Of a stretch of DNA of 13,859 nucleotides, positions 1 through 13,859 are shown piece after piece. Every line of letters starts with the position of its first letter. The stretch's first letter is position 1. Location: positions 1 to 13,859 of the IMG/VR virus record IMGVR_UViG_2690315992_000015; one strand, 5' to 3'. This DNA is from a virus. Lineage: Duplodnaviria; Heunggongvirae; Uroviricota; Caudoviricetes. Below the pieces are notes generated by a model. The model did no database searches, had not been told where the DNA came from, and saw only the letters and a list, made by a program, of their open reading frames with translations. The position numbers and the translations under genes are program-made.

Positions 1-462
1 TTATTTCACTTCTTTAAAACCAGCGGCTTTCATCACCAGTTCCATTTGCGCCATAGTGATACCTTTTTTGGCATCTTCAGCAGAAACGTTGATTCCTGAA
101 ATACCCTGCAGGGCTTTAAAATCCACTTTTTCCATATCGATAGTCACGTTTTCCTGCGCGTAGGTATCTGTATAGGTTAATTTTTCTTCAACACCCGCGA
201 TGTTTTTGTATTTGGCGCTTAACGGCTCAAGTGTCTTGGCAGCGTCTTCTTTGGTGGTTGCACCAATAGAAGCAAATTGAATTTTGGTTTCAGAAGATTG
301 CTTAAGCACCTTGTCACCTTTGTAGACATAGGTAATGGCAATTTCAGTGCCGTTCAGATTGGCGCTGAATTTCTTCGATTCTTCTTTGTCACCGCAGCCA
401 GCAAGAGAGAAAACCAGAACAGATGCAACAACGAGGGAAAACAGCTTATTGAAAGCCTTCAT
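1..462 (-). CDS. yehR: DUF1307-family lipoprotein (YehR-like)
   Basis: Minus-strand ORF whose stop (TAA) is at 1-3. N-terminus MKAFNKLFSLVVASVLVFSLAGC has a hydrophobic signal peptide and a LAGC lipobox. GGAG lies about 8 nt upstream of the ATG at 460-462, so the track's 474 start (MEFYMKAF) is probably an over-extension. Identity as YehR is from recalled similarity. Confidence 0.8.
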   Translation of the reverse strand: MKAFNKLFSLVVASVLVFSLAGCGDKEESKKFSANLNGTEIAITYVYKGDKVLKQSSETKIQFASIGATTKEDAAKTLEPLSAKYKNIAGVEEKLTYTDTYAQENVTIDMEKVDFKALQGISGINVSAEDAKKGITMAQMELVMKAAGFKEVK

Positions 463-491
463 GTAAAACTCCATTTTATTTAATCAAGAAA

Positions 492-586: not shown

Positions 587-2587
587 TCATCCTTGTTGCT
601 GAAGCATGGGGAATAATTGTTCGCAAAGTAAAACACCGTTATTCATTGCTTCTACCCGTGCCTCGCTTTCTGTATTACGAAATTGTCCCAACACATGTGC
701 CAGCCGATAAAAACCGACCGCGGAGAGGTCATTCGCCAGCAACTCTGCCTGACTAATAGCGCTCTGTTCCTGATAGCGCCAGCCGTTATGGAGCAGTTGA
801 ATAAGTAACGCCTGGCAGCGCATCAGCAACTGATGAGCGGTAGACGGCACAGGCAAAACGCTGGCAGAAGGTAGCGGTGCCACAGGCGCAGTTTCTGCGT
901 CCAGCGCCCAGGCGCGGGTTTTTGTCATCATCACCCGTGGTTCCAGTGTCAATTGCCCATCAACAAAACTGACAAAGCCAGAAACCAGACTCACGGGGTC
1001 GTCTGTTTGTTGCAAAAGCGCCGCCATGCGTTCAACGGCAAAAGGAGAACAGGCAGATGCCGGAAGGGATAACGTCAGGAGATTATCTTCACCTTCGCCG
1101 CTGATTACCTGCGCATCCAGCGTCTGGCGGCTGCTATCCCAACCGAGCGAAATACACTCAGCGACCGGCAGAATAAATAAGTTATCGACCTGATTAAGAG
1201 GCCGTATGCAGGCGGGGGGACGCTGGCGTAAATATTCCCGCAAAGCCACAATGCCCGGCTGGCGTAACGGCGCGCTCAACATTTGCCAGGCATCAGGCGA
1301 CAGCGGCACAACGCTGCTTAAGCGGTTGCGGGTAGCTAACAGCAGCTCGCCATCGGCACTGCGTTTTGCTGCTTGTGAAACAATTTGCCCACCCGCCAGT
1401 GCGCCAGCCTGAAAACTAAACAGCCGACGCGTAGCTGCCGGTGAGTTTTCCTGTTCACTTCGCGGCCAACTGCGCGAAAGGTGCAAAATACTGCCGGTGT
1501 CGGGATCGGTAAACCAGATGCGTAAACCATAATGCTCAATATCCTGCCAGCAACGCATACCTAAAGACACCAGCCGCAGATGATCAAGCTTTGCTTCTCC
1601 GGCAATGCCAGAGCCAACGACCGTGCGCCACGGCACAGGAGGAACTTCACCAACACTGTCGCGCCGGGCCATCTCTTGTGCGCAATTTAATCGACTGTTT
1701 AATGCCGCAAGCTGACGTAAGCATTCTCCGGCATGATAGTGGCTGGCGCGAGTGTGGAAGGCATCAACGCTTGCCCGTAGCTGTCGTAGTGATTCACTCA
1801 CCCAGCGCCAGTTGCAGGCCTCTGCCGCCTGCAATGCGCGGTTGAATGCTGCCTCGTAGTGAATAAGCGGCTGGCTGATGCCGCCAAGCCATAATGCCTG
1901 GCTTAATTGCTGAACATATTGACGACACGTTTGGCCTTCTTCGCTGGCAAACGGATCGTCAGATGATGTGACGTGTTCGCTGCGCATCTGCCAGATTAAA
2001 TGGTTAAATTCTGCTTGCTGCGCTTTGGCCTCGACGAAGGCCTGCACAGCCAGTACGACATGTTCGCAAAGTGTGCCTTCAATACAATCACAACGGGCGA
2101 AACGAATACTGCTACGGGAATAAAAACGCACATCGCTCATCGGTAAGCGGGCAGAGGGAATTTCGCCCGGCGCACAGAACAACTCAATGGTGATGCCTTT
2201 AGCGACCAGCGCCTGCGCGCGTTTGCGGGTGGCATCGGGCAGGGTAGCCAGTTCTTCCAGCCAGATTGCCGGATCCCACTCTTCTTCTTTTTCCGTGGGC
2301 TGGACGGTGGCACAAAGTCGTTGATAACTTAACACCAGCATCACGCGATGACGGCACATGCCGCTGGCCCCGCAGCTGCACTGAGCCTCTTTCAGTGCCT
2401 GGCTGTTCGCCAGCTGGGTACGGACACCGTCACTGAAGGTGGCGATTAAAGCGCCGTTCTCATGGCTGATTTCCGGGACGTTGCCATTTTCCAGTTCCTT
2501 AAGACTGCGCTTAACAAAACCGGCATTGCTTAACGCCGTCAGTGCCTGCGGTGTCAGTTCTAATAATTCCGGACGTAGTGAATTCAT
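587..2587 (-). CDS. yehQ: SWIM zinc-finger domain protein (YehQ-like)
   Basis: Long minus-strand ORF with two CxC...CxH motifs (CSCGASGMCRH and CDCIEGTLCEH). The track ORF runs through the N gap as X residues; the real start is most likely the ATG at 2585-2587 (MNSLRPELL), 5 nt from the gap. Upstream partner genes would lie beyond the gap. Confidence 0.8.
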   Translation of the reverse strand: MNSLRPELLELTPQALTALSNAGFVKRSLKELENGNVPEISHENGALIATFSDGVRTQLANSQALKEAQCSCGASGMCRHRVMLVLSYQRLCATVQPTEKEEEWDPAIWLEELATLPDATRKRAQALVAKGITIELFCAPGEIPSARLPMSDVRFYSRSSIRFARCDCIEGTLCEHVVLAVQAFVEAKAQQAEFNHLIWQMRSEHVTSSDDPFASEEGQTCRQYVQQLSQALWLGGISQPLIHYEAAFNRALQAAEACNWRWVSESLRQLRASVDAFHTRASHYHAGECLRQLAALNSRLNCAQEMARRDSVGEVPPVPWRTVVGSGIAGEAKLDHLRLVSLGMRCWQDIEHYGLRIWFTDPDTGSILHLSRSWPRSEQENSPAATRRLFSFQAGALAGGQIVSQAAKRSADGELLLATRNRLSSVVPLSPDAWQMLSAPLRQPGIVALREYLRQRPPACIRPLNQVDNLFILPVAECISLGWDSSRQTLDAQVISGEGEDNLLTLSLPASACSPFAVERMAALLQQTDDPVSLVSGFVSFVDGQLTLEPRVMMTKTRAWALDAETAPVAPLPSASVLPVPSTAHQLLMRCQALLIQLLHNGWRYQEQSAISQAELLANDLSAVGFYRLAHVLGQFRNTESEARVEAMNNGVLLCEQLFPMLQQQG

Positions 2588-2592
2588 GACTG

Positions 2593-2606
2593 NNNNNNNN
2601 NNNNNN
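2593..2606. other. assembly gap (14 N)
   Basis: Literal run of n in the sequence; flanking sequence on the two sides belongs to different gene contexts. Confidence 0.97.
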
Positions 2607-2623
2607 ATCAAAAACAGGTTTCA

Positions 2624-3121
2624 TTATTTAGCCCTCACCAGAAAGTTAAATGCAATATTTCGCGGTCTGACAGCAACAAAATTCACACCATCACCCACAG
2701 AGTTACTGGTGAAATTAAATCGTGAAAATCCTGGCTGATTTCCGGCGATGCCATCATGAAAGTTAATTGCGTGTCCCGCACCTCCGCCTATATTCCCGGC
2801 AAACTGAGAAAAGTTTGTAGCTTCCTGCCAGCTTAATAATTCGCGACCACCATCTGCACCTCGCCCGTCATCCCAGATACGAATGAAATCACCGCGGGCT
2901 TCAGGTAATACCAGCGAAGGAAATACTTTCGCCAGCACAGGATAATCAGTGGCAGAGAATTTCGCGCCGTTGAACTTCAAAAACACCATACTGGACCAGC
3001 TGTCGATTACAGTATTTGGCATTGCAGCGGACGGCCAGAAGAACGGAACGCCAATAGCTGGAGCACCTTCTCCCAAACCAACGTTTAAGAAAATGCAGAG
3101 GTACCAGCTAACTGGCATCAT
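2624..3121 (-). CDS. phage tail-fibre variable C-terminal cassette (tail-collar-like domain), silent orientation of an invertible segment
   Basis: Gly/Asn-rich minus-strand ORF with the motif YPVLAKVFPSLVLPEARGDFIRIWDDGRG typical of the tail-collar region in Mu S / e14 StfP-type fibre tips. It begins next to the crossover site adjacent to the invertase gene and is closed upstream by a stop at 3131-3133, so it is not expressed as a full fibre in this orientation. The functional fusion point would be the crossover site, not the track's ATG. Confidence 0.55.
   Translation of the reverse strand: MMPVSWYLCIFLNVGLGEGAPAIGVPFFWPSAAMPNTVIDSWSSMVFLKFNGAKFSATDYPVLAKVFPSLVLPEARGDFIRIWDDGRGADGGRELLSWQEATNFSQFAGNIGGGAGHAINFHDGIAGNQPGFSRFNFTSNSVGDGVNFVAVRPRNIAFNFLVRAK
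3068..3093. other. hix/gix-like 26-bp invertase crossover site
   Basis: TTCTCCCAAACC-AA-CGTTTAAGAAAA: imperfect 12-bp inverted half-sites around a 2-bp core, fitting the recalled consensus TTnTCnnAAACC-nn-GGTTTnnGAnAA (compare hixL TTCTTGAAAACCAAGGTTTTTGATAA). It sits about 55 bp upstream of the invertase start, inside the 5' end of the fibre cassette. Confidence 0.55.
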
Positions 3122-3148
3122 CTCCGGTTTTTATTCAGGGGGATGATC

Positions 3149-3715
3149 ATGCTTATTGGCTATGTACGCGTGTCAACAAATGACCAGAACACCGATTTGC
3201 AACGTAATGCACTGAACTGCGCGGGATGTGAGCGGATTTTTGAGGACAAAATCAGTGGCACTAAGTCCGACAGACCGGGGCTGAAAAAACTACTCAGGAC
3301 ACTATCGGCAGGAGACACGCTGGTTGTCTGGAAGCTGGACAGGTTGGGGCGCAGTATGCGGCATCTTGTTACGCTGATAGAAGAGTTGCGCCAGCGTGGT
3401 GTGAATTTCAGAAGCCTGACTGACAGTATTGATACCAGTACCCCAATGGGCCGTTTCTTTTTTCATGTCATGGGTGCCCTGGCTGAAATGGAACGCGAAC
3501 TGATAGTTGAACGTACCAGGGCAGGGCTGGCTGCAGCTCGTGCCAAAGGCAGAGTAGGTGGACGCCGTCCTAAGTTGACCACCGAACAGTGGGCACAGAT
3601 TGGGCGTTTACTCGAGGCCGGAGAATCAATACAGCGTATTGCACTGATTTTTGATGTAGGCGTTTCTACCATTTATAGAAAATTTCCGGCAAATAAGATC
3701 AATGAATCCCCCTGA
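3149..3715 (+). CDS. pin: site-specific DNA invertase, serine recombinase (Pin/Gin/Cin/Hin family)
   Basis: N-terminus MLIGYVRVSTNDQNTDLQRNAL with the catalytic Ser in RVSTNDQ and a C-terminal HTH (VSTIYRKF); near-identical in pattern to e14 Pin as recalled. AGGGGG at 3137-3142 favours the ATG at 3149 over the track's 3143. Confidence 0.92.
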   Translation: MLIGYVRVSTNDQNTDLQRNALNCAGCERIFEDKISGTKSDRPGLKKLLRTLSAGDTLVVWKLDRLGRSMRHLVTLIEELRQRGVNFRSLTDSIDTSTPMGRFFFHVMGALAEMERELIVERTRAGLAAARAKGRVGGRRPKLTTEQWAQIGRLLEAGESIQRIALIFDVGVSTIYRKFPANKINESP

Positions 3716-3762
3716 ATCAGCATTATGTTGATTATCCCTGCAAGCAGACAAATACCGTTATT

Positions 3763-3780
3763 TTGTGTGAATAACGACAC
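3763..3780 (+). promoter_or_regulatory. candidate Ogr/Delta-dependent late promoter element (TGT-N12-ACA) for the FI operon
   Basis: TGTgtgaataacgacACA lies 78-95 bp upstream of the FI start codon. P2/P4 late promoters carry a TGT-N12-ACA dyad centred near -55 (established knowledge). A single motif occurrence; the transcription start is not verified. Confidence 0.45.
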
Positions 3781-3857
3781 AACTGCGCTTAGCTGTTTGT
3801 CAGGCACAATCACTTCAACATAGGGCGAAGCCTAATCCAATCAGGAGGTTCGCCACT

Positions 3858-5030
3858 ATGGCTCAGGATTACCACCACGGGGTGCGCGTTGTTGAAGTCA
3901 ACGAAGGCACCCGATCTATTACCACGGTGAGCACCGCCATCGTGGGTATGGTCTGCACGGGCGATGATGCCGATGCAAAAATGTTTCCTCTTAATAAACC
4001 CGTGCTGATCACTGATGTGCTGACTGCCAGCGGTAAAGCGGGTGAGTCAGGTACTCTGGCCCGTTCGCTGGATGCCATCGCTGACCAGGCAAAACCCGTG
4101 ACCATTGTTGTGCGTGTGCCGCAGGGTGAAACGGAAGACGAAACCACGACCAATATCATCGGCGCAGTGACTGCTGAAGGTAAAAAAACAGGTATGAAAG
4201 CCCTGTTATCTGCCCAGTCACAGCTCGGCGTTAAACCGCGCATTCTCGGCGTGCCAGGCCACGACACCAAGGCGGTAGCTACTGAGTTGCTGAGCGTGGC
4301 GCAACGCCTGCGTGGATTTGCTTACCTGTCAGCGTATGGCTGCAAGACAGTGCAGGAGGCGATCACTTACCGCGAAAACTTCAGCCAGCGCGAAGGGATG
4401 CTGATCTGGCCTGACTTTACTGGTTGGGACACGGTGCTGAATGCCGAAGCAACGGCATATGCCACCGCCCGTGCGCTTGGTCTGCGCGCCAAAATTGACG
4501 AGCAGACCGGATGGCACAAAAGCCTGTCCAACGTGGGCGTGAACGGTGTCACCGGAATTTCTGCAGATGTGTTCTGGGATCTGCAGGACCCGGCAACCGA
4601 TGCAGGTCTGCTGAACCAGAACGACGTCACCACGCTTGTGCGTAAAGACGGTTTCCGCTTCTGGGGTTCCCGCTGCCTGAGTGATGACCCGCTCTTTGCC
4701 TTCGAAAACTACACCCGCACGGCGCAGGTGCTGATGGACACGATGGCAGAAGCACACATGTGGGCGGTGGATAAACCGCTTAACCCGTCGCTGGCCCGCG
4801 ACATTATCGAAGGTATCCGCGCCAAAATGCGCAGCCTGGTCAGTCAGGGCTATCTCATTGGTGGTGATTGCTGGCTGGATGAGTCGGTGAACGACAAAGA
4901 CACGCTGAAAGCCGGAAAACTCACCATCGACTACGACTACACGCCAGTGCCGCCACTTGAAAACCTGATGCTGCGTCAGCGCATCACCGATCAGTACCTG
5001 GTGAATTTCGCCAGCCAGGTCAGCGCGTAA
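3858..5030 (+). CDS. FI: contractile tail sheath protein (P2 gpFI-like)
   Basis: 390-aa ORF with a strong AGGAGG RBS, in the conserved position at the head of the FI-FII-E-T-U-D operon; length and sequence are typical of the P2 sheath protein. Confidence 0.9.
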
Positions 5031-5039
5031 GGGGACAAC

Positions 5040-5555
5040 ATGGCATTACCACGCAAATTAAAACACCTGAACCTGTTTAACGACGGGAACAACTGGCAGG
5101 GGATCGTTGAGTCGCTGACGCTGCCGAAATTTACCCGCAAATATGAGAAGTATCGCGGCGGCGGAATGCCGGGTGCGGTGGATGTGGATCTGGGGCTTGA
5201 TGACAGTGCGCTGGACACAGAATTTTCCATTGGTGGTACTGAATTGCTGCTGTTTAAACAGATGGGTAAAGCCACGGTGGATGGCATCCAGCTGCGCTTT
5301 ACCGGCTCTATTCAGCGTGACGATACCGGGGAAGTGCAGGCCGTGGAGCTTGTCGTGCGTGGACGTCACAAAGAAGTGGATTCCGGCGAGTGGAAGACGG
5401 GCGAAAGCAACACCACCAAAGTGACCAGTACCAACAGCTACGCGAAGCTGACCATCAATGGTGAGGTGCTCTATGAAGTGGACCTTATCAACATGGTGGA
5501 AATTGTGGACGGTGTGGACCTGATGGAAGCGCACCGCAACGCCCTCGGCCTCTGA
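5040..5555 (+). CDS. FII: tail tube protein (P2 gpFII-like)
   Basis: 171-aa ORF 9 bp downstream of FI with an AGGGGA RBS; size and position match the P2 tube protein. Confidence 0.9.
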   Translation: MALPRKLKHLNLFNDGNNWQGIVESLTLPKFTRKYEKYRGGGMPGAVDVDLGLDDSALDTEFSIGGTELLLFKQMGKATVDGIQLRFTGSIQRDDTGEVQAVELVVRGRHKEVDSGEWKTGESNTTKVTSTNSYAKLTINGEVLYEVDLINMVEIVDGVDLMEAHRNALGL

Positions 5556-5566
5556 TATATCTGAAC

Positions 5567-5584
5567 GGCGCGGGATACCGCGCC
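5567..5584 (+). other. GC-rich hairpin (GGCGCGG-gata-CCGCGCC) between FII and E
   Basis: Perfect 7-bp GC stem read from the sequence; no U-tract follows, so it is more likely a partial attenuator or mRNA-stability element than a full terminator. Confidence 0.3.
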
Positions 5585-5609
5585 AGAACCCAATTGACAG
5601 GACAGCAAA

Positions 5610-5912
5610 ATGAGCGATAAGCAGACTGAAAAGACCATTCAACTGGATACCCCCATCAAGCGCGGTAAAACAGAAATCACCGAAATTGTGCTGCGTAAAC
5701 CGCAGTCCGGTGCGCTGCGCGGTACACGCCTGCAGGCCATTATGGATATGGATGTAAACGCGATGATGACCGTGATCCCCCGCATCTCCAGTCCGGCACT
5801 GACTGCACAGGAAATTGCAGAGATGGACCCGGCAGATCTCACTGCCATGTCGGTTGAGGTTGTCACTTTTTTGTTGAAGAAGTCGGTGCTTGCCGGTTTA
5901 CCGACAGCCTGA
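5610..5912 (+). CDS. E: tail assembly chaperone (P2 gpE-like)
   Basis: 100-aa ORF between the tube and tape-measure genes; the N-terminal pattern (LDTPIKRGKTEITEIVLRKP...GALRG) resembles P2 gpE; contains the slippery heptamer near its 3' end. Confidence 0.85.
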   Translation: MSDKQTEKTIQLDTPIKRGKTEITEIVLRKPQSGALRGTRLQAIMDMDVNAMMTVIPRISSPALTAQEIAEMDPADLTAMSVEVVTFLLKKSVLAGLPTA

Positions 5913-6046
5913 CGGTTGACGATCTGGTGGCAGATATCGCCACCATTTTTCACTGGCCGCCATCCGTTACTGACGTTATGCCGCTGACCGAAGTGCTGGA
6001 ATGGCGGTATAAAGCGATTCAGAGAAGCGGGGCCAACGATGAGTGA
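5610..6046 (+). CDS. E': E+E' fusion made by programmed -1 frameshift at T_TTT_TTG (5867-5873)
   Basis: The canonical P2 slippery heptamer is in the zero frame at 5867-5873. The -1 frame is open from 5873 to a TGA at 6044-6046 (VEEVGACRFTDSLTVDDLVADIATIFHWPPSVTDVMPLTEVLEWRYKAIQRSGANDE) and overlaps the T start, as in P2. Confidence 0.65.
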
Positions 6047-7553
6047 TAACAACCTGCGTCTGCAGGTCATTCTTAATGCGGTTGACAAGCTCACCCGTCC
6101 ATTTCGATCTGCGCAGGCCAGTTCAAGAGAACTGGCTGCTGCTGTCAAAAAATCCCGCGATGCAATAAAGCAGCTTGATCAGGCCGGGAGCAGTCTGGAC
6201 AGCTTCCGAAAGCTGCAGGCAGAAAATCAGAAATTAGGCGACAGGCTGAACTATGCCCGCCAGCGTGCAAATTTGCTCAGTCAGGAACTGGGAGCGATGG
6301 GGCCGCCTTCGCAACGTCAGGTTGTTGCTCTGGGCCGTCAACGGCTGGCTGTTCAGCGCCTGGAAGAACGCCAGAAAAAGCTGCAGCAGCAGACGGCGCT
6401 TGTGCGTGCTGAACTGTACCGGGCGGGAATTTCTGCGAAAGACGATGCGGGAGCAACTGCCCGTTTAGCCCGTGAAACATCACGTTATAACCAGGAACTT
6501 TCGAAACAGGAGGCGCGGCTGAAGCGACTGGGGGAAGCTCAGCGCAGGATGAATGCAGCGCGTGCCAGTTATGCCCGTTCGCTGGAGGTGCGTGATCGTA
6601 TTGCAGGTGCCGGAGCCACCACCACGGCTGCAGGGCTGGCAATGGGTGCGCCAGTGATGGCGGCAGTAAAAAGCTATACCAGCATGGAAGATGCCATGAA
6701 AGGTGTGGCAAAGCAGGTCAATGGTCTGCGTGACGATAATGGCAACCGCACTGCACGTTTTTATGAAATGCAGGATGCCATCAAGGCTGCCAGCGAACAG
6801 TTGCCGATGGAAAACGGTGCGGTGGACTTCGCTGCACTGGTTGAAGGTGGTGCGCGCATGAACGTCGCAAACCCTGACGACAGCTGGGAAGATCAGAAAC
6901 GTGACCTGCTGGCCTTCGCCAGTACGGCAGCAAAGGCGGCAACAGCCTTTGAGCTGCCAGCGGATGAACTGTCAGAAAGTCTGGGGAAAATCGCCCAGCT
7001 CTACAAAATCCCCACCCGCAATATTGAACAGCTCGGTGATGCGCTGAACTATCTGGATGATAACGCCATGTCGAAAGGGGCAGACATCATTGATGTGATG
7101 CAACGTCTGGGCGGTGTGGCTGACCGTCTGGATTATCGTAAAGCGGCGGCGCTGGGTTCCACCTTCCTGACACTGGGCGCTGCGCCAGAGGTTGCAGCCA
7201 GTGCAGCAAACGCGATGGTGCGTGAATTGTCCATTGCCACCATGCAAAGCAAGAGTTTCTTTGAAGGGATGAATCTGCTGAAACTCAATCCTGAAGTGAT
7301 TGAAAAGCAGATGACGAAGGATGCGATGGGAACCATCCAGCGCGTGCTGGAGAAGGTAAACGCGCTGCCGCAGGACAAGCGCCTGTCTGCCATGACTATG
7401 TTGTTTGGTAAAGAGTTTGGCGATGACGCGGCGAAACTGGCAAACAACCTGCCGGAACTGCAGCGTCAGTTAAAACTGACAGCGGGCAATGATGCGCTCG
7501 GCTCCATGCAGAAAGAATCCGACATTAACAAGGATTCACTTTCTGCGCAGTGA
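6039..7553 (+). CDS. T: tail tape measure protein, N-terminal 504 codons (P2 gpT-like), ends at an in-frame TGA
   Basis: Coiled-coil-rich, Ala/Gln/Arg/Leu-rich N-terminus typical of tape measure proteins, in the correct operon position. The TGA at 7551-7553 is followed in the same frame by the next ORF. Confidence 0.8.
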   Translation: MSDNNLRLQVILNAVDKLTRPFRSAQASSRELAAAVKKSRDAIKQLDQAGSSLDSFRKLQAENQKLGDRLNYARQRANLLSQELGAMGPPSQRQVVALGRQRLAVQRLEERQKKLQQQTALVRAELYRAGISAKDDAGATARLARETSRYNQELSKQEARLKRLGEAQRRMNAARASYARSLEVRDRIAGAGATTTAAGLAMGAPVMAAVKSYTSMEDAMKGVAKQVNGLRDDNGNRTARFYEMQDAIKAASEQLPMENGAVDFAALVEGGARMNVANPDDSWEDQKRDLLAFASTAAKAATAFELPADELSESLGKIAQLYKIPTRNIEQLGDALNYLDDNAMSKGADIIDVMQRLGGVADRLDYRKAAALGSTFLTLGAAPEVAASAANAMVRELSIATMQSKSFFEGMNLLKLNPEVIEKQMTKDAMGTIQRVLEKVNALPQDKRLSAMTMLFGKEFGDDAAKLANNLPELQRQLKLTAGNDALGSMQKESDINKDSLSAQ

Positions 7554-9116
7554 TTGCTGGTCAAAACCGGAGCGCAGAACACCTTCAGCAGCCTGGGCGA
7601 AACGCTGCGCCAGCCGCTGATGGATATTCTGTACACGGTGAAAAGCGTCACGGGGGCGTTGCGTCGCTGGGTGGAAGCTAACCCGGAACTGACAGGCACA
7701 CTGATGAAAGCATCGGCTGTTGTGGCTGCGGTTACCGTCGGCCTCGGCACCTTAGCGGTGGCGCTGGCTGCAGTGCTGGGGCCGCTGGCAGTGATCCGTC
7801 TGGGATTCTCTGTGTTGGGTATCAAAACGTTATCTTCCGTTACGGCAGCAGTAACTCGAACCAGCAGCGCGTTGTCCTGGCTGGCTGGCGCACCACTGGC
7901 ACTGCTGCGACGCGGGCTTGCTTCATCGGGCAACGCCGCAGGTTTACTTACTGCGCCGTTGTCGTCTTTGCGCCGCACGGCATCACTGACGGGAAATGTC
8001 CTGAAAACTGTAGCAGGTGCGCCGGTTGCACTTTTGCGGTCTGGATTATCCGGTTTACGTGCGGTTGCTGTGATGTTTATGAATCCACTGGCAGCACTAC
8101 GCGGCGGGCTGGCTGCCGCAGGCACGGTGCTGCGAGTACTGGCATCTGGTCCACTGGCGATGTTGCGCGTTGCCCTGTATGCCGTATCTGGTCTGTTAGG
8201 TGCTCTGCTCAGTCCGATAGGTCTTGTGGTTACTGCACTGGCGGGTGTGGCACTGGTTGTCTGGAAATACTGGCAACCCATCACCGCATTTCTCGGTGGC
8301 GTGGTGGAAGGATTCAAAGCGGCGGCAGGTCCCATCAGTGCAGCGTTCGAACCGCTTAAGCCTGTGTTCCAGTGGATTGGTGACAAAGTGCAGGCGCTGT
8401 GGGGCTGGTTTACTGATCTGCTGACGCCCGTTAAGTCGACTTCTGCCGAACTGCAGAGCGCAGCGGCAATGGGGCGACGATTCGGGGAGGCACTGGCGGA
8501 AGGGCTGAATATGGTTATGCATCCGCTGGACTCCCTGAAATCTGGCGTTTCCTGGTTGCTGGATAAACTCGGCATTGTCAGTAAAGAGGCTGCAAAGGCG
8601 AAACTGCCGGAAAGCGTGACGCGTCAGCAACCTGCGACGGTGAATGCAGACGGTAAAGTGATGATGCCATCGGGTGGTTTTCCGTCATGGGGATATGGCT
8701 TTGCGGGGATGTATGACAGCGGCGGCTATATCCCGCGCGGGCAGTTTGGCATCGTCGGTGAAAACGGGCCGGAAATTGTTAACGGCCCGGCAAATGTGAC
8801 CAGCCGGAGAAATACAGCTGCACTGGCTGCCGTTGTTGCCGGAATGATGGGCGTTGCTGCCGCGCCTGCAGAGCTTCCACCGTTGCACCCTTTGGCACTT
8901 CCCGCGAAAGGCGGCGAAGCGATGGTGAGTCGTGCAGCCACTGTGCCGCCCGTTCAACGGATTGAGGCACCGATGCAGATCATCATTCAGACGCAGCCAG
9001 GACAAAGTGCGCAGGATATTGCGCGGGAGGTGGCCCGCCAGCTTGATGAACGTGAACGTAGGCTGAAGGCAAAAGCCAGGAGTAACTACAGCGATCAGGG
9101 GGGATACGACGCATGA
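7554..9116 (+). CDS. T: tail tape measure protein, C-terminal 520 codons (same frame as 6039-7553)
   Basis: Same reading frame as the upstream segment (6039 and 7554 are both multiples of 3). Contains the hydrophobic repeat region and C-terminal part of a tape measure protein; the stop overlaps the U start (ATGA). The two segments together give about 1025 codons, a plausible size for a P2-family tape measure protein. Confidence 0.75.
   Translation: MLVKTGAQNTFSSLGETLRQPLMDILYTVKSVTGALRRWVEANPELTGTLMKASAVVAAVTVGLGTLAVALAAVLGPLAVIRLGFSVLGIKTLSSVTAAVTRTSSALSWLAGAPLALLRRGLASSGNAAGLLTAPLSSLRRTASLTGNVLKTVAGAPVALLRSGLSGLRAVAVMFMNPLAALRGGLAAAGTVLRVLASGPLAMLRVALYAVSGLLGALLSPIGLVVTALAGVALVVWKYWQPITAFLGGVVEGFKAAAGPISAAFEPLKPVFQWIGDKVQALWGWFTDLLTPVKSTSAELQSAAAMGRRFGEALAEGLNMVMHPLDSLKSGVSWLLDKLGIVSKEAAKAKLPESVTRQQPATVNADGKVMMPSGGFPSWGYGFAGMYDSGGYIPRGQFGIVGENGPEIVNGPANVTSRRNTAALAAVVAGMMGVAAAPAELPPLHPLALPAKGGEAMVSRAATVPPVQRIEAPMQIIIQTQPGQSAQDIAREVARQLDERERRLKAKARSNYSDQGGYDA
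7779..8177 (+). repeat. degenerate tandem repeats (about 66 bp / 22 aa period) inside the tape measure gene
   Basis: Recurring peptide motif GPLAVIRLGF / APLALLRRGL / APLSSLRRTA / APVALLRSGL / NPLAALRGGL / GPLAMLRVAL at roughly 22-aa spacing; the corresponding DNA motif CCACTGGC...CTGCG..G recurs. Confidence 0.5.
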
Positions 9117-9598
9117 TGATGGTGCTGGGATTGTACGTGTTTATGCTGCGCACCGTGCCGTATCAGGAGCTGCAGTATCAACGCAGCTGGCGACATGCGG
9201 CAAACAGCCGGGTAAACCGACGTCCGTCCACGCAGTTTCTGGGACCGGACAACGACATGCTGACGCTTTCCGGTGTTCTTATGCCGGAGATAACAGGTGG
9301 CAGGCTGTCGTTGCTGGCACTGGAGCAGATGGCAGAACAGGGGAAAGCATGGCCCCTGATTGAAGGCAGCGGCACGATTTATGGCATGTATGTGATTGAG
9401 GGACTGAATCAGACTAAAACGGAGTTTTTCCGCGACGGTATGCCGCGCCGGATTGAGTTCACCCTGTCGCTCAAACGGGTGGATGAATCCCTGTCCGATA
9501 TGTTCGGTGATCTCAGTGCGCAACTGAATAATCTGCAGGAAACGGCAACGTCTGCCTTAAGCGATATCAGTAAAACGGTGGGAGGGCTGCTGTCGTGA
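9113..9598 (+). CDS. U: tail protein (P2 gpU-like)
   Basis: 161-aa ORF with a GGGGGGA RBS; start overlaps the T stop. Motifs QFLGPDNDMLTLSGVL and WPLIEGSGTIYGMYVIEGL match the recalled P2 gpU pattern. Confidence 0.88.
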   Translation: MMMVLGLYVFMLRTVPYQELQYQRSWRHAANSRVNRRPSTQFLGPDNDMLTLSGVLMPEITGGRLSLLALEQMAEQGKAWPLIEGSGTIYGMYVIEGLNQTKTEFFRDGMPRRIEFTLSLKRVDESLSDMFGDLSAQLNNLQETATSALSDISKTVGGLLS

Positions 9599-10695
9599 AT
9601 TTCAGCTCTGAACTGCTTAACAAAAGCAACAAAACTCCGGCATTCAGCATCAGTATTGAGGGTAGGGATATCACCACTGTGCTGGATAACCGCCTGATGA
9701 GTCTGACTCTGACGGACAATCGGGGCTTTGAAGCAGACCAGCTTGATCTGGAGCTGGACGATGCCGACGGGAAAATCGTGCTGCCGCGCCGTGGTGCGGT
9801 CATTACGCTGGCGCTGGGCTGGAAGGGGCAGCCGCTTTTCCCGAAAGGGGCATTCACGGTGGACGAGATTGAACACACTGGCGCACCGGACCGCCTGACT
9901 ATCCGGGCGCGAAGTGCTGATTTTCGGGAAACGCTGAATACCCGCCGTGAAAAATCGTGGCACAAGACCACCATTGGGGAAGTGGTGAAGGAGATAGCCG
10001 CGCGGCACAAGCTGAAGATGGTACTGGGTAAAGACCTGTCGGATAAGCTCGTGGAGCATATAGACCAGACTAATGAGAGTGACGGTAGTTTTCTGATGCG
10101 GCTGGCGCGACAGTACGGTGCCATCGCGTCGGTGAAAAATGGCAATCTGTTATTCATCCGGCAGGGGCAGGGCAAAAGCGCCACTGGTAAACCACTGCCA
10201 GTGATCACTATCACACGCAAGGACGGCGACAGTCACCGCTTTACCCTGGCAGATCGCGGAGCCTACACGGGCGTAATTGCCAGCTGGTTGCATACCCGCG
10301 AACCTGCGAAGAAAGAAAGCACCACGGTGAAGCGTAAGCGCAGAACTAAGAAGCAGAAGAAAGAGCCGGAAGCGAAGCAGGGCGATTACCTGGTGGGTAC
10401 GGATGAAAACGTGCTGGTACTTAATCGCACTTATGCCAACCGGAGCAACGCTGAACGGGCAGCGAAAATGCAGTGGGAACGCCTGCAACGCGGCGTTGCG
10501 TCATTCTCGCTACAACTGGCGGAAGGGCGGGCAGATCTTTACACGGAAATGCCAGTGAAAGTTAGTGGCTTTAAACAACCGATAGATGATGCGGAATGGA
10601 CCATTACGACTCTGACGCATACCGTCAGCCCCGATAACGGTTTTACAACCAGTCTGGAGCTTGAAGTGAGGATTGATGATTTCGAAATGGAATGA
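9595..10695 (+). CDS. D: tail protein D (P2 gpD-like)
   Basis: 366-aa ORF with a GTG start overlapping the U stop (GTGA); last gene of the tail operon before ogr, as in P2. Confidence 0.88.
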   Translation: MNFSSELLNKSNKTPAFSISIEGRDITTVLDNRLMSLTLTDNRGFEADQLDLELDDADGKIVLPRRGAVITLALGWKGQPLFPKGAFTVDEIEHTGAPDRLTIRARSADFRETLNTRREKSWHKTTIGEVVKEIAARHKLKMVLGKDLSDKLVEHIDQTNESDGSFLMRLARQYGAIASVKNGNLLFIRQGQGKSATGKPLPVITITRKDGDSHRFTLADRGAYTGVIASWLHTREPAKKESTTVKRKRRTKKQKKEPEAKQGDYLVGTDENVLVLNRTYANRSNAERAAKMQWERLQRGVASFSLQLAEGRADLYTEMPVKVSGFKQPIDDAEWTITTLTHTVSPDNGFTTSLELEVRIDDFEME

Positions 10696-10785
10696 TTCTT
10701 CGCAATGGAGAACTTTTAAGTTTGCAAAATGGAATAATGCGGTATCATTATTGTGAATTTAGCAAAAATGGGGAGAACTCGAAAA

Positions 10786-11004
10786 ATGATGATTTGCCCA
10801 CTGTGTGGAAGTGCCGCCCATACTCGCAGCAGTTTTCAGGTATCTTCATTGACCAAAGAGCGTTACAACCAGTGCCAGAATATTAACTGCAGCCATACTT
10901 TTGTAACCCATGAAACTTTTGTTCGTTCGATTGCAACGCCAAAAGAGTCAAATCCGGTTCAGCCGCATCCAATGAAATCAGGACAGGTGGCGCTCTCTCT
11001 TTGA
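10786..11004 (+). CDS. ogr: Ogr/Delta-family zinc-finger late transcription activator
   Basis: 72-aa product MMICPLCGSAAHTRSS...CQNINCSHTF with the C-x2-C...C-x4-C arrangement of P2 Ogr. GGGGAGA lies 9 nt upstream of the ATG at 10786; the track's 10753 start is probably an over-extension. Confidence 0.9.
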   Translation: MMICPLCGSAAHTRSSFQVSSLTKERYNQCQNINCSHTFVTHETFVRSIATPKESNPVQPHPMKSGQVALSL

Positions 11005-11084
11005 CGCTGCCGCCATTTTGTCGCCATCGTTAAAAAACAGTGCTTCTAACGTCATGATTTTAAACGGCATAAATTTCAGGCAAC

Positions 11085-11127
11085 AAAAAACCCATCAACC
11101 TTGAACCGAAATGGCGGGGTTGATGGG
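11085..11127 (-). terminator. rho-independent terminator of ybjL
   Basis: Stem CCCATCAACC / GGTTGATGGG (10 bp), followed on the minus strand by a TTTTTT run (plus-strand AAAAAA at 11085-11090); lies 110-150 bp downstream of the ybjL stop. Confidence 0.55.
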
Positions 11128-11239
11128 CTCCACAAAATGGGGACATCAAAGAAAAGCAGTGGCACTAATTAAGACTGATGCCCTGCGGAAAAGTTCTGCG
11201 GTTGTGCAAAAAAATTTCATTTTCAGGGCAACTTCAGTT

Positions 11240-12925
11240 TTATCCTAATCCTGGCCATACCATGACGATGATTGTCCCTGCCAGCGTCAGCAGGACGTTG
11301 GCGATTGCGTAGGTGCCCGCATAGCCCAGCGCAGGGATGTTACTGCGAGCTGTATCACTGATGATCTCCATTGCCGGCGCGCAGGTGCGTGCGCCCATCA
11401 TTGCGCCGAACAACAGTGCGCGGTTCATTCGCAATACATAAGCACCGAACAAGAAACAGATAACCACGGGCACAAGACTGACAATTAATCCGGCAATCAA
11501 CATCTGACCGCCAATCGCGCCCAGGCCGTTATTAATACCGCTACCGGCGCTCAGACCAACGCCTGCCATAAACACCATCAAGCCGAACTCTTTCACCATG
11601 CTTAATGCACCTTGCGGAATGTAACCGAAGGTCGGGTGGTTAGCACGCATAAAGCCCAGCATAATTCCGGCGAATAACAACCCGGCAGCGTTCCCCATGC
11701 CGAAACTGAATGTGCTGAACTGGAAGGTGATCATCCCGATCATCAGCCCAATAACAAAGAAGGCGCAGAATGCCAGCAGGTCAGTGACCTGGCTGTGAAT
11801 CGAGATAAAGCCGATGCGATCGGCGATGGTTTTTACGCGGCGGGCATCGCCGCTGACTTGTAAAACGTCACCTTTGTTAAGCACGACGTTGTCATCTATC
11901 GGCATCTCAATCTGGCTACGAATGACGCGGTTAAGGAAGCAACCGTGATCGGTCAACTTCAGTTGTGCGAGACGTTTACCTACAGCGTTATGGTTTTTAA
12001 CGACCACTTCTTCAGTGACGATACGCATGTCGAGAAGGTCACGATCGAAAACTTCTTTACCGTTACGGAAGCTGGGATCGAGTCGGGCATGGGCGTCGGG
12101 ATAGCCTACCAACGCTATTTCATCGCCCATTTGTAGCACGGCATCACCGTCTGGATTTGCCAGAATCCCGTTACGTCGAATACGTTCAATGTAGCAGCCG
12201 GTTTGTCGATAAATACCCAGTTCACGCAGATTTTTGCCGTCGGTCCAGGCCACCAGCTCCGGGCCGACGCGATAGGCGCGGATCACCGGTAAATAAACCT
12301 TACGGTTGGCATCAGTGTCCAGGCCACGTTCGCGGGCGATTTGCTGGGCGCTGGTCTGTAAGTCCTGATGCTGCAATTTCGGCAAGTAACGCGCACCAAC
12401 AATCAAACTCACCAGACCGATTAAATAGGTTAAGGCATACCCGAGGCTCAGATTATCCAGTGCCAGTGAGAGCTGCCTGCTTTCCATGCCGAAATGACGC
12501 AGTGTATCGCCAGCACCGACCAGCACCGGTGTCGACGTCATAGAGCCTGCTAACATACCGGCCGTCAGGCCAATATCCCAGCCAAACAGCTTACCTAACC
12601 CTAAGGCGATCACCAGCGCACTGCCAACCATCACCAGTGCTAACATTAGGTAATTTTTCCCATCGCGAAAAAAAATGGAAAAAAAGTTCGGTCCGGCTTC
12701 GACCCCGACGCAGAAAATAAACAGCATAAAGCCAAGATTAAGCGCATCGGTGTTAATGCTGAAATGTTGTTGGCCTAATAACAGCGATACGACTAAAACG
12801 CCAATGGAATTACCCAGTTGGATCGAACCAAGTCGTAACTTTCCGAGACATAGCCCAAGCGCGAGGACCACAAATAATAACAGAATGTAATTCCCATTTA
12901 ACAATTCGGCGACGTTTATATTCAC
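11240..12925 (-). CDS. ybjL: AAE-family putative transporter YbjL (two transmembrane domains flanking TrkA-C-type cytoplasmic domains)
   Basis: 561-aa minus-strand ORF recognised as E. coli YbjL by sequence and by the flanking ybjM and grxA. GTG start at 12923-12925. Confidence 0.93.
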
Positions 12926-13194
12926 GGAGGCTAACTTCTTGTTTACTAGTAAGCTGTTGAAAGAAATGGTAATTTACGATAATGTTTTTTACCAGGATTC
13001 AGGGCGCAGATTCATTCAGCGCACCTAAACGATAGTAAAGTAACAATATATTTTACTAGTGTAATCACATTAGGTATCAACGGCTATATGAATTGCGTTG
13101 GCCTATATTAGCATGGAATGCGAAGCGGCTTTATCTTACTGAACGCCACACTGGCGAAAAATGTGTTCGATAGACGCAGTGTCAGGAGGAACGA

Positions 13195-13572
13195 GTGAAA
13201 CATAAACAACGTTGGGCGGGGGCAATCTGCTGTTTTGTCCTCTTCATTGTGGTGTGCCTTTTTCTGGCGACGCACATGAAAGGCGCTTTTCGGGCTGCCG
13301 GGCATCCTGAAATCGGCTTGCTATTTTTCATTCTTCCTGGAGCAGTTGCCAGTTTCTTTTCACAGCGTAGAGAAGTCCTGAAACCTCTATTTGGCGCAAT
13401 GCTGGCGGCACCCTGTTCAATGCTCATTATGCGGCTGTTTTTTTCACCGACGCGCTCATTCTGGCAAGAGCTGGCATGGTTACTAAGCGCGGTGTTCTGG
13501 TGTGCGCTGGGGGCACTGTGTTTCTTATTTATCAGTAGTTTGTTTAAACCACAGCACAGAAAAAATCAGTAA
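13195..13572 (+). CDS. ybjM: inner-membrane protein YbjM
   Basis: 125-aa hydrophobic ORF with a GTG start preceded by AGGAGG (13184-13189); conserved neighbour between ybjL and grxA. Confidence 0.85.
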   Translation: MKHKQRWAGAICCFVLFIVVCLFLATHMKGAFRAAGHPEIGLLFFILPGAVASFFSQRREVLKPLFGAMLAAPCSMLIMRLFFSPTRSFWQELAWLLSAVFWCALGALCFLFISSLFKPQHRKNQ

Positions 13573-13591
13573 AGCCCTCAACGCGAGGGCT
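13573..13591 (-). terminator. stem-loop between convergent ybjM and grxA (AGCCCTC-aacgc-GAGGGCT); likely grxA terminator
   Basis: Perfect 7-bp stem; on the minus strand it is followed by the T-rich TTTACTGATTTTTT. Confidence 0.45.
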
Positions 13592-13601
13592 TGTCAGACG
13601 A

Positions 13602-13859
13602 TCAGGCGTCCAGATTTTCTTTCACCCATGCAGCAAAATCGGTATAGCCGCCGATATGTTGCTGATCGACAAAAATCTGCGGCACGGTTTCTACGGGTTT
13701 ACCTGCCTTTTGTTGTAGATCTTCTTTAGTGATCCCTTCCGCACGAATATCTACATACTGATACTGAAAATCATCGCGTTCATTGCTCAATTTCTCAGCC
13801 AGATCTTTTGCACGCACACAGTAAGGGCAACCCGAACGACCAAAAATAACGGTTTGCAT
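13602..13859 (-). CDS. grxA: glutaredoxin 1
   Basis: 85-aa product with the CPYC active site (MQTVIFGRSGCPYCVRAKDLAEKL...), recognised as E. coli GrxA. The start codon is the last three bases of the window, so the promoter is outside it. Confidence 0.95.
   Translation of the reverse strand: MQTVIFGRSGCPYCVRAKDLAEKLSNERDDFQYQYVDIRAEGITKEDLQQKAGKPVETVPQIFVDQQHIGGYTDFAAWVKENLDA

Follow-up and report, generated by a model that had tools for sequence, protein, structure and literature searches.

Within a window of 13,859 nt, the whole stretch of DNA analysed here, the chromosomal gene yehQ lies next to the tail-fibre region of a P2-family prophage, and only a short run of Ns separates the two. 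The locus raises the question of whether they are neighbours in the host chromosome or only in the record. The adjacency of yehQ and the prophage is almost certainly an assembly artefact and not a real feature. The N-run is best read, with a probability of about 0.86, as a scaffolding or gap-filling gap in a short-read draft that wrongly links two contigs. We infer this misjoin from sequence comparisons, and it was not observed directly in reads.

The gap and its flanks

The sole non-ACGT stretch of the window is a run of 14 N at 2593-2606. The window is identical to positions 3963-17821 of L013 (GCA_001285585.2, CYDX01000001.1), a draft scaffold of 641,197 bp from an E. coli isolate. As this match has 0 mismatches and includes the 14 N, the N-run belongs to the deposited draft scaffold and was not introduced by extraction of the window. 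Searching the literature for the accession numbers of the source record found no citing paper. The initial annotation had placed the gap correctly: the span that it marked, 2585-2626, takes in the yehQ ATG, the gap and the start of a phage gene. Between the yehQ ATG and the N-run lie five bases (2588-2592, GACTG), and the other edge of the run lies directly beyond the first six codons (MKPVFD) of the truncated phage gene. The features of the window are as follows.

1-474, minus strand: yehR, YehR-family lipoprotein (ORF list); the window begins at its stop codon
587-2587, minus strand: yehQ, SWIM zinc-finger protein, complete, 666 aa, with its ATG at 2587-2585
2584-2592, minus strand: yehP remnant, the last two codons and stop (CAG TCA TGA), overlapping the yehQ start
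2593-2606, no strand: N-run, scaffold gap of the deposited draft record
2607-2624, minus strand: start of tfa', first six codons MKPVFD (ATGAAACCTGTTTTTGAT, minus strand), cut off by the gap
2607-3081, no strand: retained part of the 1.75-kb invertible segment (alignment to L014)
2624-3118, minus strand: silent alternative tail-fibre C-terminal cassette, Sv'-like, a 164-aa ORF crossing the crossover site
3068-3093, no strand: 26-bp crossover site on the invertase side, TTCTCCCAAACC-AA-CGTTTAAGAAAA, as a whole TTCTCCCAAACCAACGTTTAAGAAAA
3149-3715, plus strand: DNA invertase, serine recombinase, 188 aa (Pfam PF00239 Resolvase, PF02796 HTH_7)
3858-11004, plus strand: P2-family tail/late block (ORF list, annotation of relatives)
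3858-5030, plus strand: sheath
5040-5555, plus strand: tube
5610-5912, plus strand: E
5927-6046, plus strand: E'
6039-9116, plus strand: tape measure, interrupted by a TGA at 7551-7553
9113-9598, plus strand: U
9595-10695, plus strand: D
10786-11004, plus strand: ogr
11082-11160, minus strand: RybB sRNA gene (Rfam RF00110, 105.3 bits, full length), adjoining the right end of the prophage
11240-12925, minus strand: ybjL, chromosomal
13195-13572, plus strand: ybjM, chromosomal
13602-13859, minus strand: grxA, chromosomal

The left flank (2,592 nt) is 100% identical to many complete genomes. Closed genomes that match it at 100% annotate its first gene as yehR; the gene call on the source scaffold encodes 153 aa and has PF06998. 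At the other end of the flank, the final 9 nt before the gap are the end of yehP, the gene that normally precedes yehQ, and the reference sequence continues past this edge as ...GACTG|AAGATTCTCCGC... into yehP. The two genes adjoin each other in 5,334 of 5,336 complete genomes. The initial annotation had rightly observed that the upstream yeh partners are missing here, and yehP, yehM and yehL are absent from both the window and the surrounding 10 kb of the source scaffold. We also considered a recurrent breakpoint between yehP and yehQ, but the closed genome OkiPb01695, in which a yehM'-yehP deletion ends approximately 7 nt away, represents a different event.

The right flank enters the gap at codon 6 of tfa', a position at which closed genomes and sister contigs simply run on. 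The full gene encodes a 197-aa tail-fibre-assembly protein; sister contigs L015 and L028 have it in complete form, as does WS3294A, where the Sv'-like cassette is annotated as "phage tail protein, missing N-terminus". The exact Sv' product was found in only three contigs, the source and two sisters, and it is followed by yehQ in the source alone. The invertase gene is annotated as "recombinase family protein". Beyond the prophage the window holds chromosomal sequence that begins with rybB, which in K-12 lies between rcdA and ybjL, and the prophage-beside-ybjL arrangement of this flank is covered to at least 80% in 768 genomes.

Inversion of the tail-fibre segment

The gap lies 461 nt into an invertible tail-fibre segment of 1.75 kb, of whose two crossover sites the window contains the one on the invertase side; many closed genomes stop matching at window positions 3066-3069. 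Window positions 2607-3084 align in reverse to L014 5770-5293, while 3062-13859 align forward to L014 7024-17821, and the inverted repeats that bound the segment lie at L014 5284-5315 and 7024-7055. L014 thus carries the segment in the orientation opposite to that of L015 and the window, at 99.6-99.99% identity. Sister scaffold L016 contains one 387-nt segment end in two contexts, joined in one to the flank beside the invertase and in the other to the flank on the side of the tail-fibre gene (H). The segment inverts between near-identical isolates, and both orientations are present among the sister assemblies.

The region is also a point at which assemblies break. Independent short-read contigs (Logan) begin at window positions 3067 and 3075, the start of L015 falls at the core of the second crossover site, and short contigs are the source of many "partial" tfa proteins. 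A multi-copy tfa' was considered as a contig-breaking repeat; it occurs at up to 7 sites in a genome, with a median of 1, which makes this explanation possible for the isolate but undemonstrated.

In its organization the segment resembles the Din-family switches (Mu G segment/Gin, P1 C segment/Cin, e14 P segment/Pin and Salmonella Hin). It adjoins a serine recombinase with Resolvase and HTH_7 domains, is bounded by 26-bp inverted crossover sites with a 2-bp core, holds two opposed pairs of a tail-fibre C-terminus cassette and an assembly gene, and is observed in both orientations. Unlike the Mu, P1 and e14 systems, it belongs to a P2-family prophage and is placed between the tail-fibre gene H and the sheath gene, and the cassette content differs among related prophages. 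The order sheath, tube, E, E', tape measure, U, D and ogr, ending at the attachment site, is shared with P2/186-like prophages; in contrast to these, the prophage of the window carries an invertase and an invertible fibre segment. Complete relatives have capsid, lysis and baseplate genes upstream, and some relatives are integrated beside smpB instead of rybB/ybjL. The lineage of the window differs further in the nonsense codon in its tape-measure gene. A P2-family prophage beside rybB/ybjL with a Gin/Cin/Pin-type fibre switch is in itself well-known biology.

The junction in closed genomes and sister assemblies

The two loci had been described as far apart in K-12, and this is the case: in MG1655 the yehQ start lies at 2,209,100 and ybjL at 888,134-889,819, with 1.32 Mb between them. 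No place covering both flanks was found in any of 5,426 complete E. coli genomes, and the junction pattern with 0-30 intervening bases was absent from collections of genome contigs and metagenome contigs. Sister assemblies that share the rare tape-measure W505* allele match the right flank at 99.99% identity and have a complete tfa' at this point. A search for homology between the yeh region and the prophage that could drive recombination yielded nothing longer than 16 nt, and the longest shared word is not at the breakpoints.

Sister scaffold L016 contains an 11-N gap that joins gene D to a flipped tail-fibre region, with one flank 91 nt from the equivalent of the break in the window. This is a second impossible or implausible small-N join at the same element. 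A mate-pair junction, considered for this join as its flanks lie 8.2 kb apart, was ruled out by the head-to-head arrangement of the junction. Neither 14 nor 11 N is a usual fixed gap size.

Taken together, these comparisons bear out the initial annotation, which had read the gap as a scaffold join over an invertible or repeated region: the Ns are part of a draft scaffold, no closed genome has the adjacency, the sisters continue with intact phage genes, and the phage flank lies inside an inverting segment. Its warning against neighbourhood conclusions across the gap is upheld by the same evidence. Its caveat that a real rearrangement might be present also stands. The flanks are oriented as a simple inversion would orient them, but nothing positive was found for one.

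Origin of the join

In the misjoin reading, one contig would end at the yehP/yehQ boundary (equivalent to approximately 2.21 Mb in K-12) and the other inside the invertible tail-fibre segment of the P2-family prophage beside rybB/ybjL (approximately 0.89 Mb). In the real chromosome yehP would then most likely precede yehQ as usual, and the phage flank would most likely run on into a complete tfa' and the rest of the prophage. Two unique sequences about 14 bp apart should be bridged by ordinary reads, so that the failure to close the gap argues against adjacency. The cause of the misjoin we infer rather than show. The serine invertase of the prophage may flip the 1.75-kb segment during growth, so that both orientations would be present in the sequenced culture. 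The assembly graph could then tangle at the 26-bp crossover sites and leave contig ends in or near the segment without a valid partner, and a scaffolder or gap-filler may have tied one of these to some other free end and written a small estimated gap. Typical short-read scaffold misjoins likewise show an N-run in the draft, flanks that continue differently in closed genomes, a break in a region with two orientations, and other assemblies breaking at the same element. Where such misjoins typically occur at repeats or invertible DNA, however, the yehP/yehQ boundary is plain single-copy sequence with no recognisable cause for a contig end.

Two sequence coincidences were noted near the gap. The direct repeat TGGCTGATTTCCGG, 14 nt in length, occurs at 2463-2476 and 2732-2745, which is 116 and 125 nt from the respective gap edges, and the empirical chance of a 14-nt repeat between 150-nt flanks in a non-redundant sequence pool is 1.75e-4. 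In addition, each gap edge has within 5 nt of it a 12-mer that agrees with a crossover half-site at 9 of 12 positions, with a joint chance of approximately 1e-3, against a background of approximately 3 such 9/12 half-site-like 12-mers per kb. The repeat and the half-site look-alikes count as coincidences that a misjoin does not account for. A misjoin also has to face the orientation of the flanks, which matches exactly what a simple 0.89-2.21 Mb inversion would give at one of its junctions.

It is possible, but improbable, that the record reflects a real chromosomal inversion of approximately 1.3 Mb with breakpoints at the yehP 3' end and at codon 6 of tfa', the 14 N masking the true junction. 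Of the two flanks, only the left one is reversed when compared with K-12, as expected for one junction of a single inversion between approximately 0.888 and 2.209 Mb. Such an interval would span the terminus roughly symmetrically around dif, which lies near 1.59 Mb, and would be of a tolerated kind; the half-site-like 12-mers at both edges are also oriented as sites inverted on the chromosome. Several observations speak against such an inversion. The breakpoints share no recombinable repeat, and two unique sequences that truly met would be assembled gap-free. The arrangement is absent from all of the closed genomes, tfa' is intact in sister isolates, and at this element sister scaffold L016 carries a small-N join that is demonstrably inconsistent. 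A more specific form, in which a terminus-spanning inversion of approximately 1.3 Mb took place at cryptic crossover-like half-sites in yehP and the tfa' start, is very unlikely. If true, it would mean that the tail-fibre invertase of a prophage occasionally rearranges the host chromosome at quasi-sites. Inverted repeats and recombinase sites were tested, and a genuine crossover site is present at neither breakpoint. Despite the look-alikes at both edges, the whole tfa' quasi-site is kept in the window, and an exchange at its core is thus not what the record shows; invertase recombination at quasi-sites was rejected on these grounds.

The join could instead be a chimeric contig, in which two unrelated fragments were united through a short foreign or ambiguous stretch, such as an adaptor remnant, that was later masked with Ns, perhaps at version 2 of the assembly. 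In favour of this, the suffix ".2" is carried by both assemblies with an odd small-N join and ".1" by the two clean sisters. The positions of the breaks are arbitrary within sequence that is otherwise unique, and the gap sizes are the unusual ones given above. Four records are nevertheless too few to tie version number to Ns. A join through an adaptor would usually leave a much longer foreign stretch, and the occurrence of both odd joins at one invertible segment points to the segment and not to random chimeras. We regard a chimera as highly doubtful, and it too would make the yehQ-prophage adjacency false. A Nextera or other adaptor under the Ns was considered, as the left flank ends in CTG, but this CTG and the ATC after the gap are genuine genomic bases in the references, and the lengths do not fit. 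The remaining alternative, that a minority recombinant at the 14-nt microhomology between yehQ and the Sv' cassette, formed in cells or in the library, supplied the linking read pairs, draws on the position of the repeat approximately 120 nt from the gap on both sides and on its low empirical chance. Pairs from such a recombinant would give a gap of approximately -240 and not +14, however, no equivalent repeat is found at the 11-N join of L016, and the microhomology was noticed post hoc. This origin is scarcely credible, and even then the consensus chromosome would remain unjoined at this position.

The main value of the misjoin reading is one of caution. Any inference across 2593-2606 about an operon, a gene neighbourhood or a "prophage inserted in the yeh cluster" would be wrong, and the apparent loss of yehL, yehM, yehP and most of the prophage would be a product of scaffold construction. 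The locus suggests a general failure mode in which actively inverting phage tail-fibre segments lead to contig ends and to misjoins with small N-runs when short reads are scaffolded. One such join, at the same element, is present in each of two sister assemblies of one lineage.

The gap and its two flanks

The 14 Ns at 2593-2606 are the sole non-ACGT stretch in the window. Scaffold CYDX01000001.1 of assembly GCA_001285585.2 (641,197 bp) matches the window at all 13,859 positions with the 14 Ns included, and the Ns therefore belong to the deposited draft scaffold. No paper describing GCA_001285585.2 was found in a literature search.

Features at the gap and in the right flank
1-474, minus strand: yehR, left of the gap
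ATG at 2587-2585, minus strand: yehQ, complete (666 aa), left of the gap
2584-2592, minus strand: final two codons plus stop codon of yehP, by comparison with references
2607-2624, minus strand: first six codons (MKPVFD) of the tail-fibre-assembly gene tfa', complete in relatives (197 aa)
2624-3118, minus strand: silent alternative tail-fibre C-terminal cassette
3068-3093: 26-bp crossover site, TTCTCCCAAACC-AA-CGTTTAAGAAAA
3149-3715: serine invertase (Resolvase and HTH_7 domains)
After the invertase, in order: sheath, tube, E, E', tape measure, U, D, ogr
11082-11160, minus strand: RybB sRNA gene, full length (Rfam RF00110, 105 bits), between ogr and ybjL
Right end of the window, after the RybB gene, in order: ybjL, ybjM, grxA

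Five bases (GACTG) separate the yehQ ATG from the first N, and the 3' end of yehP overlaps the yehQ start in every reference. The protein encoded by tfa' carries Caudo_TAP_N and Caudo_TAP domains. The initial annotation, which placed the yehQ start 5 nt from the gap and the start of a phage gene on its other side, was accurate in every detail. Many complete E. coli genomes match the left flank (1-2592) at 100% identity, and in them yehP, yehM and yehL lie directly next. The right flank (2607-13859) consists of the right arm of a P2-family prophage and, beyond it, chromosomal genes; 768 complete genomes have a place covering at least 80% of this flank. The end of the prophage directly adjoins the 3' end of rybB, suggesting integration at this gene; L005 and L006, relatives whose invertase is the same, lie next to smpB instead.

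Annotation of yehQ varies among genomes. In strain E2863 (L002 3990-5988, against window 587-2587) it is annotated as a frameshifted pseudogene, yet that genome is 100% identical to window 1600-2592, and in K-12 it is annotated as shorter (1,845 nt) than the intact 666-aa ORF of the window. The closed genome of strain OkiPb01695 (NZ_AP042570.1; L026 4385-4410) has a deletion of yehP and the C-terminal part of yehM that ends ~7 nt from the end of the left flank, fusing the yehM remnant to yehQ.

Adjacency of yehQ and the prophage

The adjacency of yehQ and the prophage is almost certainly not a real feature. A place covering both flanks was found in 0 of 5,426 complete E. coli genomes, and no junction with 0-30 intervening bases was found in species-representative genomes or JGI metagenome contigs; of the 5,336 complete genomes with both yehP and yehQ, 5,334 have them contiguous. 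Three sister assemblies carry the same W505* tape-measure allele as the source. One of these, L015, differs from the right flank by 1 mismatch in 11,253 nt (99.991% identity) and continues leftward of the gap point into a complete tfa' and then a second tfa gene. The exact 164-aa cassette product occurs in three contigs only, with tfa' as the next gene in two sisters and yehQ only in the source. These counts, the intact tfa' in the sisters and the Ns in a draft scaffold bear out the proposal that the gap is a scaffold join. At the gap each flank still runs into its usual neighbour (yehP for the left flank, tfa' for the right), so that a true junction would have to sit wholly in the 14 unsequenced bases. 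Sequencing reads would normally span a spacing of 14 bp between two unique sequences, and the gap thus appears to count against adjacency.

In K-12, the yehQ start lies at 2,209,100 and ybjL at 888,134-889,819, placing the loci 1.32 Mb apart, as the initial annotation had broadly stated. Compared with K-12, only the left flank is flipped, which is the geometry of one junction of a real inversion between 0.89 and 2.21 Mb; such an interval would span the terminus, given the position of dif. We consider this explanation improbable, however, as the breakpoints share no repeat (the longest common word, 16 nt, is located elsewhere), a genuine crossover site lies at neither of them, the gap itself speaks against adjacency, and the sisters are intact at the gap point.

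Two post-hoc observations were made near the gap. The 14-nt direct repeat TGGCTGATTTCCGG occurs at 2463-2476 and 2732-2745, 116 nt from one gap edge and 125 nt from the other, with an empirical chance of 1.75e-4 in 150-nt flanks, and is as long as the N-run itself. Each gap edge also lies within 5 nt of a 12-mer matching a crossover half-site at 9/12, TTCTCCGCAAGC and TTCATCAAAAAC, at L002 5998-6009 (in yehP, 5 nt past the left gap edge) and L015 1271-1282 (window 2604-2615). The background of such 12-mers is ~3 per kb, giving a joint chance of ~1e-3. A simple recombination product fits neither coincidence, because the window keeps both repeat copies and the whole phage quasi-site.

The invertible segment as an assembly break point

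The phage flank of the gap lies inside a 1.75-kb invertible segment bounded by inverted repeats (5284-5315 and 7024-7055 in sister L014). The segment orientation in L014 is opposite to that in the window and L015, at 99.6-99.99% identity, in agreement with the earlier suggestion of an unresolved invertible region at this point. In sister L016 (GCA_001284165.2, CYDZ01000025.1) a 387-nt segment end is present twice (1113-1499 and 8362-8748) with one mismatch, attached once to the invertase-side half-site and once to the half-site toward the tail-fibre gene H, indicating that both flip states were present in that culture. The first bases of independent Logan contigs of sister runs fall inside the crossover site (window 3067 and 3075), L015 begins at the core of the second crossover site, and the match to many closed genomes stops at window 3066-3069. 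Many tfa entries in the protein database are also "partial" and derive from short contigs.

An 11-N gap in L016 (8351-8361) joins gene D to a reversed tail-fibre/baseplate region, and the flank of this gap lies 91 nt away from the position corresponding to the window break. The same element has here, in the same assembly set, a second small-N join that is structurally inconsistent. Inversion would leave contig ends unpaired, and a scaffolder or gap-filler may join these to other free contig ends; the left contig end falls at the single-copy yehP/yehQ boundary. That the two contigs reach similarly far beyond the crossover site, 387 and 478 nt, would be consistent with local read-pair-guided extension.

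Next to the gap lies an ordinary tail-fibre switch of the Gin/Cin/Pin/Hin type, here in a P2-family prophage, with every defining feature that was tested: invertase domains, inverted crossover sites and both orientations. The N-gap join belongs to the class of scaffold misjoins at invertible or repeated DNA. The initial observation is confirmed, and its interpretation is supported.

The W505* lineage

The tape-measure gene (6039-9116) contains an in-frame TGA at 7551-7553 (W505*; TGG in closed relatives, from which the TGA is absent) that divides the tape measure (1,025 aa) into ORFs of 504 and 520 aa. By product look-up, the exact 504-aa product was found in only 18 contigs, the source scaffold among them; these come from several samples in NCBI, Logan and ENA, and W505* is thus a real lineage allele. 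The W505* prophage is probably tail-defective.

Some of these P2-family prophages carry a cargo gene that the sister lineage lacks, encoding a KAP-family P-loop NTPase of 610 aa. The gene is inserted between the tail-completion and baseplate genes and reads from the opposite strand (L001 5296-7128 in the WS3294A prophage; also L003, L011 and L012). In a related prophage on Logan contig L019 (SRR30543823), which has the same tape-measure allele, an acyltransferase-3 gene at 6575-7606 replaces the invertase and alternative fibre cassettes.
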